Of a stretch of 64,000 bases of DNA, positions 45,028 through 48,637 are shown piece by piece. Where the stretch lies: NCBI GenBank assembly GCA_964479935.1, contig CAYZOF010000002.1, forward strand, positions 11,912-75,911, written 5' to 3'. Both the position numbers and the translations under genes were made by a program. The notes below the pieces were generated by a model that saw only the letters and a list, made by a program, of their open reading frames with translations, made no database searches and was not told where the DNA came from. Position 1 is the first letter of the stretch. Each line of letters begins with the position of its first letter. This DNA comes from an uncultured Clostridia bacterium (GTDB lineage: Bacteria > Bacillota > Clostridia > Christensenellales > Borkfalkiaceae).

Positions 45028-45056
45028 TTGCATTTTTGAAAGGAGCGTGCTATAAT
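45028..45056 (+). promoter_or_regulatory. promoter for the Cys-triad membrane protein gene
   Basis: TTGCAT (45028..45033) - 17 nt - TATAAT (45051..45056). Confidence 0.55.
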
Positions 45057-45085: not shown

Positions 45086-45547
45086 ATGCGAAAAAAAAGA
45101 CCGTTTTTAATTTTGATTAGCATTCTACTGTTGCTTGTAACGGTATTTTCATTTTCGTTTACGGCTCTTCCGCATAGAGATGAGTGTTCGCATTCTGTAT
45201 GCGAATATTGTGAGGAACTTGAACAGGCGGAGTTGCATTTGCAAGAAACGACTCGCACGCACGGAGAATGTAACGAAGCAGTTTACTGTGAAGTTTGCAC
45301 CTTAATACGTATGCAACAAACGTATTTGCGCGGTAAACGCTCGGAAGGGCATACTTGTCATGCAAAAATTTGTTTTTCTTGCCTTTTGAATATGATTTAT
45401 CGGCGTATTCAATCGTTTGCGGTAACTTTGGCTGTACTGTTGCTGGCGGTTGCCATCATTGCGCAGGTACATTACTTATACTTGAAACCGAGCGTTTTAT
45501 CACGCAAGGTTACGTTGATCGAATTAAAGGTTAAATTAACCGATTAA
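45086..45547 (+). CDS. small bitopic membrane protein with three Cys-triad motifs between two TM helices
   Basis: TM1 at aa 7-27 and TM2 around aa 109-130. Between them lie ECSHSVCEYC, ECNEAVYCEVC and TCHAKICFSC. Own TTGCAT-17-TATAAT promoter and AAAGGAG RBS. Confidence 0.7.
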   Translation: MRKKRPFLILISILLLLVTVFSFSFTALPHRDECSHSVCEYCEELEQAELHLQETTRTHGECNEAVYCEVCTLIRMQQTYLRGKRSEGHTCHAKICFSCLLNMIYRRIQSFAVTLAVLLLAVAIIAQVHYLYLKPSVLSRKVTLIELKVKLTD

Positions 45548-45587
45548 TACAATAGAATACCGTAAAAACGCAGTCTGTTAAAGCGGG

Positions 45588-45638
45588 CTCTTTTGTTGTA
45601 CGTTCCGAAAACGCTTTTGACAAAAGAGTATGTTTTTT
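45588..45638 (+). terminator. compound hairpin + T tract after the Cys-triad gene
   Basis: CTCTTTTGT - 23 nt (with inner CGTT/AACG) - ACAAAAGAG followed by tatgtttttt. Confidence 0.5.
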
Positions 45639-45660
45639 CGCGTGTTTTTACGCACAATAT

Positions 45661-45701
45661 AACGAGCAATCCGCTTTTTACGCGGGGAGGCTCGTTTTCT
45701 T
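45661..45701 (+). promoter_or_regulatory. second hairpin in the leader of the MacB-type ABC operon (possible attenuator)
   Basis: AACGAGC...(CCGC-tttttac-GCGG)...GCTCGTT followed by ttct. It ends ~25 nt before ATG 45726. Confidence 0.35.
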
Positions 45702-45725
45702 ATAGAAAAATAAAGGAGAAACAAC

Positions 45726-46385
45726 ATGATAGAAATTAAAGGTATTACGAAGCAGTTTCAAAACGAAACGGCGATCGATTATAAAGATATAACGTTTGAA
45801 ACAGGGAAATCCTATATGTTGCTCGGTGCGTCGGGATGCGGAAAATCCACGTTATTGAATATGATTGCCGGAATTTTATCTCCGACCAAAGGACAGGTTG
45901 TCATTGACGGCGTCGACATGTCCGGGGCGAGTCAAAAGGCGCGAGATAAGTTCCGTATCGAGAACATCGGCTACATATTTCAAGATTTTAAGCTCATCAA
46001 CGACATGACGGTGACGGATAACATCAATATTTTGCGCTTGGAGGACATAGACACTTCGGACGCGCCGAAACTTTTGGCTTGTTTAGGCATCGAAGAAAAG
46101 AAAAACAGCAAGATCAAACATCTTTCGGGCGGTCAAAAGCAACGCGTCGCTATCGCGCGCGCTCTTGTGAAAAAGCCGCAGATCATTCTCGCGGACGAAC
46201 CGACGGGAAATTTGAACTTCGCCATCGGGGAACAGGTCATTAAGGAATTGATAGAAATTTCTAAAGGCAAAACGTTGATTGCTGTCTCGCATGACGAGCG
46301 TCTTGCCAAGTATTTCGACGAAGTCGTCGATATGAACGAAATGACGGGCGGCAGAAGAGATATCGCGCCCGAGGAGGTGTTGTAA
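45726..46385 (+). CDS. ABC transporter ATP-binding protein (MacB/LolD-like)
   Basis: Walker A GASGCGKSTLLN, LSGGQKQRVAIARAL, ILADEPTGNLN. Confidence 0.9.
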   Translation: MIEIKGITKQFQNETAIDYKDITFETGKSYMLLGASGCGKSTLLNMIAGILSPTKGQVVIDGVDMSGASQKARDKFRIENIGYIFQDFKLINDMTVTDNINILRLEDIDTSDAPKLLACLGIEEKKNSKIKHLSGGQKQRVAIARALVKKPQIILADEPTGNLNFAIGEQVIKELIEISKGKTLIAVSHDERLAKYFDEVVDMNEMTGGRRDIAPEEVL

Positions 46386-47593
46386 TGTTTCGTTTTGCTT
46401 TGAAGAATATGGCAATAAAAATGGTACAAAATATTTTGATTGTGCTGTCTATCGTCCTTTCTGCAGGGATAGCGGTGTTAGCATATAACGTAGCCAATCA
46501 GGTGGAGGAAGGAATAACGAAAAACGCAGGGTATTATTCGGTAATCGTTGGGCCTTCGGGCAGTCAAACGCAACTCGCGATGAATACGATGTATTTCACG
46601 GACGAGCCTGTCGGTACGATTCCCTATTCGGTTGTTACGGATTTACAAAAGGACGGTTCAAGAGTAAAATCGGTCATTCCGTTTGCAATGGCAGACAATT
46701 ATAACGGCTATGGCGTGGTCGGAACGACTTCGGCATTTTTGAACGAAAAAACCGTTGAGAAGGGTACCATGTACGAGGATAACACCACGATGCAGGCGGT
46801 CGTCGGGTATAAAGTGGCGAAATATAACAGCCTTAAAGTCGGCGATGTGATCTATACCAGTCATTCGGCAAACAGTACCGAAACGCACGCAAAGGGAATT
46901 ACTGTCGTCGGTATTTTGGGGGAAAGCCATTCTGCCTACGATAACATCGTATTCACGCAGCTACGTACCCTTTGGGAAATGCACGATCACGGCGAAGATG
47001 CGGAAGAGGGCGATGAGGAACACGATCACGAACACGGCAAAACCGTCTGTGCGGTATTGGTGAATACCACTACGCCTGCGGCGGCGTTGCAACTGGTTAC
47101 CGAATACGACGGAAAAGTGCTCACCGACGATGACGGCGATGCGTTCACCTTACAGGCAATTGAACCGATGGACGTCGTTCGAGGCGTGTTAAACGAAGCC
47201 GACGATACAAAATACATTGTATTTGTGCTTTGCGCGGTTATTTTGCTCATGAATATCATGGTCATTTCGATTATTACGTTGCTCAATATGTATCATTCGG
47301 CGAAGGAAATTTCGCTCATGCGGTTGATCGGTATCAGTATGAAGAAAATCAACCTTTTGTACATTATTCAAAATGGCATCATCGGTTTGGTATCGGCAGG
47401 GTTGGCGTTCGGTTTGTCTAAGGTCTGCTTGCTATTGATGAACAATTACGTGGCGTCTATGGGCGTCGTCTTGAATATGGGCATCGTATATCCTATGGAA
47501 TTCGTGATTTTGTTTGCGGTATTTTTAATAAGCGTCGTTCCCACCGTCATTTGGACGTTCTTTATGTCTAAAAAAGATGGGATAGGCGAGTAA
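46385..47593 (+). CDS. FtsX/MacB-type ABC permease (4 TM) with a His/Asp/Glu-rich insertion in the extracytoplasmic domain
   Basis: TM1, then a ~240-aa external domain, then three C-terminal TM helices (FtsX-like layout). The loop MHDHGEDAEEGDEEHDHEHG is encoded at 46979..47038. Confidence 0.85.
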   Translation: MFRFALKNMAIKMVQNILIVLSIVLSAGIAVLAYNVANQVEEGITKNAGYYSVIVGPSGSQTQLAMNTMYFTDEPVGTIPYSVVTDLQKDGSRVKSVIPFAMADNYNGYGVVGTTSAFLNEKTVEKGTMYEDNTTMQAVVGYKVAKYNSLKVGDVIYTSHSANSTETHAKGITVVGILGESHSAYDNIVFTQLRTLWEMHDHGEDAEEGDEEHDHEHGKTVCAVLVNTTTPAAALQLVTEYDGKVLTDDDGDAFTLQAIEPMDVVRGVLNEADDTKYIVFVLCAVILLMNIMVISIITLLNMYHSAKEISLMRLIGISMKKINLLYIIQNGIIGLVSAGLAFGLSKVCLLLMNNYVASMGVVLNMGIVYPMEFVILFAVFLISVVPTVIWTFFMSKKDGIGE

Positions 47594-47608
47594 AAGGAGA
47601 AAAAACTT

Positions 47609-48637
47609 ATGAAAGGATTTATAGAAAAAGTAAAGGCGTTTTTTGAGAAACATTCGTTTATGAAATGGCTTGCACCGCTCTTGGCGGTGGTTGTGATTGC
47701 TACGTCCGTACTTGTACCGATGGCGGCATGTAAAGACAAGAAACCGAGCAGCGGTGGCGTTACGATAGAAAACGGTATTGCGAAACTGAGTTTCAAATCG
47801 GCGGCAAATTACGAATATTTGAAAACGCTCGATAATACGACGGTTACGATCAGCGGTTATATGGCGAGCAGCTCTCCCGTGGACGGTTCGTTTATGTTTT
47901 TGATGAACTTGCCCTATCAAAGTTGTCCGTTTTGCGTGCCGAATACGTCACAACTCTCCAACACGTTGGAAGTATACCCTAAGAAAGGCGACGCATTCGA
48001 TTATACCACGCAGGCGATCAAAGTCGTAGGGACATTGAAAGTTGCGCCCAATGAAAACAAACCTTTCACGGATAAATACGGGTACGTGTTCAATTACAAG
48101 ATTACGGACGCTGAATATACGATTTTGCGTTCCGAAGACTTGTCCGAAGATCTTGCGCTTTGGTCGAAAATTGCCGATTCGGACGTCATCAACGATATTT
48201 ATACGATGTACGATTACGTGAACTTCACCTGCGCGTGGAATACTTATTTCTATAACTCCTATACGGATGTAGACGGCAACCTTGTACCCGGTTATTATCT
48301 GTATGCTTCCGACGCCGAATATTTGTTGACGACGGACGGAGCGCAGTGGAATTACGGCTATCAAGACGGCTATTTCGATAAAATTATCGCCAAAATTCAA
48401 TCCGTAGACGAAACGGCGTTTCAAGACTTAGTGGAAAATATAGAGAAAGCAAAGGCTCTTGCCGAAAAAGCCGTGAAAGAACTTTTGGACGGCAAATATA
48501 CTTGTCAGAAGCAATACGTGGAGAAATTCGATTGCGAGGACTGGATTTTTACATTGGACAAAGGGGAAGAATTGCAGGCAGAAATGAGCACAATTTACAG
48601 CGAATTTTCCAACTGGCTCGGCAGTTGGGAAATGTAA
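47609..48637 (+). CDS. lipoprotein with an OB-like CxxC domain, co-transcribed with the MacB-type transporter
   Basis: Signal peptide plus lipobox (VPMAAC). TISGYMASSSPVDGSFMFLMNLPYQSCPFCVPN is reminiscent of DUF3299-type ABC-associated proteins (from recall only). Confidence 0.7.
   Translation: MKGFIEKVKAFFEKHSFMKWLAPLLAVVVIATSVLVPMAACKDKKPSSGGVTIENGIAKLSFKSAANYEYLKTLDNTTVTISGYMASSSPVDGSFMFLMNLPYQSCPFCVPNTSQLSNTLEVYPKKGDAFDYTTQAIKVVGTLKVAPNENKPFTDKYGYVFNYKITDAEYTILRSEDLSEDLALWSKIADSDVINDIYTMYDYVNFTCAWNTYFYNSYTDVDGNLVPGYYLYASDAEYLLTTDGAQWNYGYQDGYFDKIIAKIQSVDETAFQDLVENIEKAKALAEKAVKELLDGKYTCQKQYVEKFDCEDWIFTLDKGEELQAEMSTIYSEFSNWLGSWEM

Follow-up and report, generated by a model that had tools for sequence, protein, structure and literature searches.

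A four-gene ABC transporter unit of uncultured gut Clostridia with three candidate metal-binding elements

What does a MacB-type ATP-binding cassette (ABC) transporter do when its genes stand between one for a small Cys/His-rich membrane protein and one for a lipoprotein with a CPFC motif? The question is raised by positions 45086-48637 of a 64,000-nt stretch of DNA (the window) from an uncultured Clostridia bacterium of the Borkfalkiaceae (assembly GCA_964479935.1, contig CAYZOF010000002.1, positions 11,912 to 75,911 of the forward strand). The open reading frame (ORF) listing of the window shows four co-directional ORFs in this locus, for the small protein, an ATPase, a permease and the lipoprotein; all features of the window given below lie on the forward strand. 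A first reading of the letters alone (the original prediction) had suggested that three exported Cys/His-rich elements may cooperate in binding or extruding a metal or a thiol-reactive compound, and the ORFs and features that it described were all recovered in place.

The four genes are conserved together, and we see an even chance that they encode an ATP-driven relay for extracytoplasmic metal, probably zinc, analogous to ZrgABCDE of Vibrio and PA4063-PA4066 of Pseudomonas aeruginosa. What was observed is the order of the genes, their conservation together, the invariance of the ligands, and the folds and links between families; the function is our reading of sequence, structure prediction and genomic context. 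The module is coherent, widespread and not previously described, and is a variation on the metal-associated MacB-type ABC systems that have a partner with an oligonucleotide/oligosaccharide-binding (OB) fold, to which the small protein would add a new family of accessory subunits.

Four genes conserved as one unit

Synteny was surveyed from the lipoprotein side with one genome per species, and 76 species-level loci were returned, in which the ATPase, permease and lipoprotein genes were contiguous wherever the contig allowed. Nearly all carriers were uncultured Oscillospiraceae, Faecousia, Acutalibacteraceae or 'Clostridia' from animal guts. Identity to the window proteins across related loci was 63-93% for the ATPase, 60-92% for the permease and 50-84% for the lipoprotein. 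A word-seeded search recovered only three relatives of the small protein, and many more were revealed when the DNA 5' of each ATPase gene was read: a small ORF stands directly 5' of the ATPase gene in about 59 of the 63 usable loci (window counted), 51 with the strict form of a conserved C-terminal pattern and 8 with a variant ending. The reverse test started from three relatives of the small protein, the weakest profile match among them, and led to four loci with an identical gene order of small protein, ABC_tran ATPase, MacB_PCD/FtsX permease and a lipoprotein of ~320 residues. Co-occurrence of the Cys/His gene with the ABC genes, a check proposed with the original prediction, was thus found from both sides. 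Because this synteny is held while the outer flanks differ among loci (hydrogenase, serine dehydratase, 3-deoxy-D-arabino-heptulosonate 7-phosphate (DAHP) synthase or phosphopantetheinyl transferase), the small protein, ATPase, permease and lipoprotein genes are a single conserved four-gene unit of uncultured gut Clostridia.

Outward elements rich in potential metal ligands

The two central genes would provide the motor of the unit, a split MacB-type (type VII) ABC transporter made of an ATPase and an FtsX-type permease with four transmembrane (TM) helices. The ATPase (45726..46385; 219 residues) is probably of the MacB/LolD/FtsE-like clade and matched PF00005 (ABC_tran) at 5.5e-37; its best NCBIfam matches were L_ocin_972_ABC and then FtsE, LolD and DevA, all below the equivalog cutoffs. 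The permease (46385..47593; 402 residues) scored 39.3 bits against MacB_PCD (PF12704; cutoff 27) and 28.8 bits against FtsX (PF02687; cutoff 25.5). Its hydropathy segments lie at residues 8-38, 274-304, 324-353 and 359-396, with a large outside domain of 235 residues (39-273) between TM1 and TM2, and a PDB sequence search with it returned nothing meaningful. Residues 199-218 of the outside domain form a loop rich in His, Glu and Asp (MHDHGEDAEEGDEEHDHEHG; 46979..47038), and Pfam and hydropathy together bear out the original description of the ATPase and permease, this loop included. The loop is kept in 60 of 60 distinct orthologous permeases, where a His/Glu/Asp run that varies in length stands between L-W-x-M-H-[DE]-H and T-V-C-A. 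Loss of the His-rich insertion from functional orthologues had been named as grounds against the original prediction; besides these 60, the insertion is present in six of seven distant Gram-negative homologues.

The lipoprotein (47609..48637; 342 residues) has a signal peptide with the lipobox Cys at residue 41, an N-domain at residues 57-172 and a helical/beta C-domain at residues 175-340. The N-domain carries the motif FMFLMNLPYQSCPFCVPN (residues 95-112; 47891..47944), with CPFC at nt 47924-47935. In an alignment of 52 homologues CPFC was invariant and SSPVDGSFMFLMNLPYQSCPFCVPNTSQLSNT essentially so, and the C-domain was rich in invariant Tyr, Trp and Asn. The AlphaFold2 (AF2) model, with a predicted local distance difference test (pLDDT) score of 82, showed a beta-rich N-domain and a very confident C-domain (pLDDT >93). 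Foldseek against the PDB returned OB folds, namely the N-domains of aspartyl- and asparaginyl-tRNA synthetases (AspRS and AsnRS) and RPA14/32, which supports the OB-like N-domain that had been described around FMFLMNLPYQSCPFCVPN. At rank 7 stood the DUF3299 protein PA4066 (PDB 4hsp; prob 0.99, TMt 0.41, 18% identity). The suggested resemblance to the DUF3299-type partners of such transporters held in part: the OB fold and the kind of partner are shared, but Pfam DUF3299 (PF11736) gave no match even at E<=10, and PDB sequence searches with the single sequence and with a profile returned neither 4hsp nor anything meaningful. Neither half of the lipoprotein matched a Pfam or NCBIfam family, and among its more than 1,256 homologues (clusters at 90% identity) none has a Pfam domain or an informative name. 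A thioredoxin-fold oxidoreductase of the ResA/StoA/DsbA kind was rejected as its identity, since CPFC lies in a beta-barrel OB-like domain and no thioredoxin-family Pfam match was found. The ORF begins 21 codons before a second Met (47609-47674), from which a canonical lipoprotein signal peptide (MKWLAPLL…PMAAC) results; because of this, and because many homologues begin near there, Met22 may be the true start.

The small membrane protein (45086..45547; 153 residues) is predicted to start in the cytoplasm and to run through TM1, an outside Cys/His region and TM2 to a cytoplasmic tail. Its hydrophobic segments at residues 3-30 (TM1) and 106-135 (TM2) enclose three Cys/His motifs, in agreement with the original description, and the K/R-rich N-terminus together with the two TM segments argues that these knuckles lie outside. 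Knuckle 1 (HRDECSHSVCEYC; residues 30-42; 45173..45211) has C34, H36, C39 and C42 invariant. Knuckle 2 (HGECNEAVYCEVC; residues 59-71; 45260..45298), with H59, C62, C68 and C71 invariant, and knuckle 3 (HTCHAKICFSC; residues 89-99; 45350..45382), with H89, C91, C96 and C99 invariant, both lie in a lineage-specific insertion. Composition-preserving shuffles of the protein gave the three motifs in 0 of 200,000 cases, and a scan of all other six-frame ORFs of the window found none with even one knuckle motif.

The typical family member has 90-100 residues, mostly ~95, and a single knuckle between its two TM helices. Its architecture is a K/R-rich N-terminus, TM1, (L)P-H-x-H-x-C-x4-C-x2-C, TM2, a variable linker and a tail of the consensus t-P-V-x-L-K-V-K-L-S-[DN]; CxxC is the one strictly invariant element, with little variation in the His and Cys before it. 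Knuckle 1 is the counterpart of this lone motif in the alignment. Because the single-motif family aligns end to end with the window protein apart from a 57-residue insertion, which adds two units of knuckle plus helix, the triad is a lineage-specific multiplication of a conserved single site and not a family-defining trait. The 'Cys triad' of the original prediction is thus present as described, but as an expansion of a single motif. The triple form was found in seven loci, and none of its 12 ligand positions (three Cys3His sets) varies among them at overall identities of 33-78%; in a further lineage (P0194) the Cys region is expanded in another way. The AF2 model of the window protein was used for secondary structure only and, at its low confidence, suggests that each CxxC stands at the start of a helix.

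A profile search of 1.84 billion representatives returned 3,734 clusters (50% identity) at E<=1e-3 and 458 at E<=1e-10, and each of the 150 matches listed is ~95 residues long or slightly longer. The window protein and 55 family members matched no Pfam or NCBIfam family even at E<=10, the matches being noise from the TM segments, and a PDB sequence search with the profile gave nothing meaningful. As both the small protein and the lipoprotein thus stand outside Pfam and NCBIfam families, the earlier remark that the combination was not recognised was fair.

In the window the tail reads LKVKLTD (45524..45544). The four codons for Val all occur across loci, as do the four TCN codons for Ser and several of those for Leu; since synonymous codons of the tail vary freely, selection acts on the peptide. 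A palindrome at the 3' end of the small gene, GGTTAAATTAACC, was for the same reason rejected as an operator and regarded as a by-product of the K-V-K-L-T codons. The last sense codon is GAT or AAT in 53 of 54 loci, with GAC and AAC absent throughout, and the stop codon after it is TAA or TGA (45542-45547 in the window); this restriction could reflect codon bias or a constraint of the termination context.

Several other identities were considered. A c-type haem site (CxxCH) was rejected, as in no case does a His come right after a CxxC. A bacteriocin precursor was rejected on account of the two TM helices of the small protein, its conserved cytoplasmic end, the absence of a leader or cleavage motif and the lack of biosynthetic genes nearby. 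The pattern of zinc-binding anti-sigma factors (H-x3-C-x2-C) fits knuckle 3 only, and the motifs are predicted to lie outside, between TM helices; the lack of a sigma factor gene next to the module in any locus examined also counts against this identity.

The lipoprotein N-domain has relatives well beyond the Clostridia. A tblastn search of PLSDB with it matched 53 replicons (identity 25-34% over >80% of the query; E down to 2e-5) from Rhizobium, Paracoccus, Shinella, Ensifer, Microvirga, Azospirillum, Roseomonas and Deinococcus. The matched proteins are exported 'hypothetical proteins' of ~150 residues, and CPFC is invariant in both groups. With an hhalign probability of 98.5% (E 2.6e-15), the OB domain of these proteins is truly homologous to the lipoprotein N-domain. 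In seven of seven annotated loci inspected, the gene order was a PhoA-type alkaline phosphatase (PF00245, a Zn2Mg enzyme family), followed by the OB protein, an ABC ATPase and an FtsX permease. The Paracoccus permease matched that of the window (BLASTP E 3e-19) with the His-rich stretches superposed, and six of the seven Gram-negative permeases have a His-rich loop at the same position, with 5-13 His per 50 residues after a conserved W-x-x-H-G.

These clusters, on replicons of Paracoccus, Rhizobium, Shinella, Azospirillum, Roseomonas, Ensifer and Deinococcus, share with the Clostridial module the adjacency of ATPase and permease, an OB-CPFC protein and the His-rich permease loop. They differ in that the OB protein comes first and is soluble, ~150 residues long and without the C-domain, and no small Cys/His membrane subunit is encoded at any of the seven Gram-negative loci. 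Conversely, no alkaline-phosphatase homologue was found in the window or at any Clostridial locus, and the PF00245 linkage is a feature of the alpha-proteobacterial and Deinococcus clusters. When searched by Pfam and NCBIfam these clusters are unannotated: the Gram-negative OB proteins matched no family, and their profile had no meaningful PDB sequence match, 4hsp included. A literature search on operons of alkaline phosphatase, FtsX and zinc found nothing relevant. One cluster, on Ensifer adhaerens plasmid p-3 (2681-7716), lies inside an arsenic/copper resistance island, with a PCu(A)C copper chaperone immediately 5' of it; its permease gene is followed by one for a TM protein with a Cys-rich stretch (MSCCPDQKQSLPDCQKSCPLATICMAKC), then FixH and a resistance-nodulation-division (RND) pump.

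A proposed metal relay and its alternatives

In the relay that we propose, three elements with metal ligands would face outward from the motor: the flexible His/Glu/Asp loop of the permease, the OB-fold lipoprotein with CPFC, and the two-TM small subunit with its Cys3His knuckle or knuckles. The knuckles would sit at the outer face of the membrane, and the LKVKLS[DN] tail would probably be docked on the ATPase or on the cytoplasmic face of the permease. The His/acidic loop would capture, with low affinity, a divalent metal, most likely Zn(II), which would then be handed between the CPFC lipoprotein and the thiolate-rich knuckles, with permease movements driven by ATP powering its loading or release. 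On balance the unit would serve to acquire metal or to metallate exported proteins. In the window lineage the knuckle has been triplicated to three Cys3His sites, and the small gene has become separated from the ABC genes by an inserted, structured and attenuator-like leader. Metal binding itself, the metal concerned, the direction of transfer and the contacts between subunits are what we infer here. Zinc is favoured because of the mix of His/acidic and Cys3His ligands and the analogy to Zrg, and also because the homologous core is linked to alkaline phosphatase and an anaerobic habitat keeps thiolates reduced.

The Vibrio ZrgABCDE system, the equivalent of P. aeruginosa PA4063-PA4066, is regulated by Zur and needed for growth in zinc limitation when ZnuABC is absent; it comprises a split MacB-like ABC transporter, a His-rich zinc-binding protein and an OB-fold DUF3299 protein without an assigned role, to which Vibrio adds a membrane protein of 101 residues, ZrgD (PMC9817125, PMC9820375, PMC8561739). 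The Clostridial module resembles it in the split ATPase and four-TM MacB-like permease with a large outside domain, in the exported OB-fold partner (ZrgE/PA4066; 4hsp is a top structural neighbour of the window lipoprotein), in a His-rich element, which in Zrg binds zinc with low affinity, and in a small membrane protein (~100 residues for ZrgD). The differences are equally clear. The His-rich element is a permease loop here and a separate DUF2796 protein (ZrgA/PA4063) in Zrg, and neither the ORFs of the window module nor their Pfam matches include a gene for such a protein. The OB partner, unlike that of Zrg, is lipid-anchored, with an extra C-domain of 170 residues and the CPFC motif, and the small subunit differs in its two TM helices and Cys3His knuckles. 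Moreover, the host is a Gram-positive-type anaerobe, and whereas Zrg is Zur-regulated, no Zur box was detected in 58 upstream regions of the module with a consensus that may differ from the Zur box of these Clostridia. The module is therefore treated here as one that would work like Zrg, yet it is not filed as a Zrg member. With MacB, FtsEX, LolCDE and HrtBA (type VII ABC systems, the mechanotransmission superfamily) it shares the MacB_PCD and FtsX domains, the four TM helices and probably the ATPase clade; unlike them it has metal-ligand-rich accessory parts, no membrane-fusion protein or TolC and no known substrate class.

The invariant Cys pairs could serve a different chemistry. In a thiol/disulfide relay, or in the trapping of an electrophile expelled by the ABC motor, CPFC and CxxC would be redox-active, as in electron relays from a membrane protein to a lipoprotein such as CcdA-ResA or DsbB-DsbA. 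The glutaredoxin-like spacing of CPFC, its invariance in the lipoproteins and the standing of CxxC as the sole strictly invariant element of the small family all speak for such a role. The N-domain, however, is an OB fold and not a thioredoxin fold, the neighbour survey found no partner nearby that would supply reductant, and thiol exchange has no use for the conserved His beside Cys (H-x-H-x-C; Cys3His in all three knuckles) or for the universal His/Glu loop. The hosts are strict gut anaerobes, in which extracellular disulfide chemistry is unusual, and we consider this explanation unlikely.

Gram-positive MacB-type pumps typically act on antimicrobial peptides, bacteriocins, haem or lipids, and the module might be an ordinary detoxification or peptide-export pump of this MacB/Bce/Hrt-like kind, with a structural or sensory small protein and structural zinc in the knuckles. 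The promoters, which look constitutive, would suit it, and so would the ATPase, given that its best NCBIfam match is a lactococcin-972-type bacteriocin export ATPase, with FtsE, LolD and DevA next in rank; these matches, however, fall far below their cutoffs. Genes for a bacteriocin precursor, a two-component system or biosynthesis were absent around the module at the loci surveyed, and neither the universal, length-variable His/acidic loop nor the alkaline-phosphatase linkage of the homologous modules would be explained, which makes such a pump improbable. Least probable of the three is an FtsEX-like mechanotransmission in which the motor switches an extracellular activity of the lipoprotein C-domain (e.g. 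cell-wall/glycan binding or hydrolysis) and the metal sites are structural or regulatory: FtsEX-type complexes do regulate extracellular partners, at times with small membrane cofactors, and the C-domain combines a very confident predicted fold with many invariant Tyr, Trp and Asn residues, but Pfam, NCBIfam and PDB sequence searches recognised no enzyme family in it, and the Gram-negative homologues lack it yet retain the OB-CPFC domain and the His-rich loop, so that the conserved core function does not reside there.

Each of the three alternatives accounts less well than a metal relay for the conservation of the His-rich loop and for the domains that the Gram-negative homologues contain, and metal handling is the most coherent of the readings considered. 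A number of observations nevertheless weigh against it. No MacB-type transporter is known to carry a substrate through the membrane, and net import would therefore need a new mechanism. The AF2 model of the lipoprotein is poor in the CPFC loop (pLDDT <50 at residues 110-116), the model of the 153-residue protein is of low confidence (pLDDT 66.8; predicted template modelling score, pTM, 0.37), and the CxxC pairs might be redox-active or purely structural. Adjacent genes are mostly unrelated housekeeping genes, and the promoters look constitutive. Pfam DUF2607 (ZrgD) gave no match at E<=10 with the window small protein or 55 family members; with the DUF3299 test negative as well, the parallel to Zrg is one of architecture, any homology being hypothetical. 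The direction and substrate of the Zrg/PA4063-PA4066 type of system are themselves disputed, export of cobalt-pyochelin having been argued for it in 2024 (PMC11481552 vs PMC9820375). Finally, Rfam (evalue mode, 40-52 kb) returned no match in the leader and thus no known riboswitch there, and sites for Zur, Fur, PerR, AdcR, CsoR, CzrA, MntR and NikR were no more frequent 5' of the small gene in the 58 loci than in shuffled sequence, with approximate operator consensus sequences and a Zur box that may differ in these Clostridia. The three-element metal idea of the original prediction is thus upheld as to one conserved unit with invariant putative ligands, but a metal-responsive operator or known riboswitch was not found.

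A more far-reaching interpretation is offered tentatively. The two-TM Cys/His-knuckle protein would represent a new class of accessory subunit for type VII ABC transporters and, with the His loop and the CPFC partner, would form a metal relay that acquires zinc or loads exported metalloproteins; the alkaline-phosphatase-linked core would then be a bacterial counterpart of the metallation systems for secreted zinc enzymes. We regard this as possible but doubtful.

The role of MacB-type ABC transporters in metal homeostasis is debated for Zrg/PA4063-PA4066, where import and export have each been argued and there is "no clue as to its function" for the OB-fold partner. The present module provides a second, independent and sequence-rich family for this question, in which the presumed ligands, those of the His/Glu loop, of CPFC and of the Cys3His knuckles, can all be specified and the knuckles form a natural dose series of one, several or three. 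Moreover, cultivable relatives (Paracoccus, Rhizobium and Deinococcus radiodurans pMP1) carry the same core beside a zinc-dependent alkaline phosphatase whose activity is easily assayed. The module also gives a context to two large unannotated families, the small protein and the lipoprotein, which are common in animal-gut Oscillospiraceae.

Promoter, leader and neighbouring genes

A promoter-like site with an extended -10 element (TTGCAT-17 nt-TGcTATAAT; 45028..45056) was read from the sequence 5' of the small gene; it is missing from the automated promoter scan because the scan demands 4/6 matching positions in the -35 hexamer. The corresponding site of relatives reads TTGACA/TTGACT-17-TGnTATAAT. 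Tandem direct repeats occur just 5' of the -35 element of the small gene in two loci (ATATCACAAAC x2 at about 5410-5440 of L004; GATTATCACGTG x2 at about 3430-3460 of L009); they are not conserved across loci and may be lineage-specific regulator sites.

A leader of 178 nt (45548..45725) separates the small gene from the ATPase gene, whose ribosome-binding site AAGGAG lies at 45713-45718. It contains a long-range stem (CGUAAAAACGC / GCGUGUUUUUACG) around a hairpin at 45572-45589, and a terminator-like hairpin with a U-tract at 45662-45695. The leader had been described as structured and 178 nt long, and both points hold: its folding energy of -51.7 kcal/mol lies well below that of shuffled controls (z = -3.95). 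The long spacer is confined to the triple-motif lineage, with 144-179 nt there vs 39-52 nt in most other loci, and the structure is conserved in the seven triple-motif loci only, in a single copy in the window. Among these loci the 3' arm of the terminator-like stem and the U-tract (GGCUCGUUUU) are invariant, and several pairs of the leader stems are kept by two-sided changes, with further pairs changed on one side only. From these features we read the leader as an attenuator through which the small gene would be expressed independently of the ABC genes.

The survey of neighbouring genes found no consistent metal gene among the loci; the recurrent genes were limited to those for DUF134 regulators, in 10 loci, and for chromate transporters, in 5-6 loci. 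The DUF134 putative DNA-binding protein, the most recurrent neighbour, is encoded 5' of the small gene (L013, L015, L019, L020, L026, L021, L023, L025, L082 and L042) and in some loci is fused to a NifX-like Nitro_FeMo-Co domain and has a His/Cys-rich C-terminal tail (…CNHHDHHHGENHTCGEHGCGGNCGNHE); it might regulate the module in response to metal or redox state. Several lineages have chromate-transporter genes (PF02417) 3' of the lipoprotein gene (L020 and some 5 further loci; 9576-10288 in L091). In the closest relative (L001, 4355-5758), genes for a CobW_C-domain protein (143 residues) and a DUF1980_C-domain protein (321 residues) lie about 2-3 kb 5' of the module. Such gene pairs are typical of zinc-limitation regulons, and the pair is absent from the window. 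Unconnected with the module, the GC skew of the window falls from about +0.15 to about 0.02 near position ~52000.

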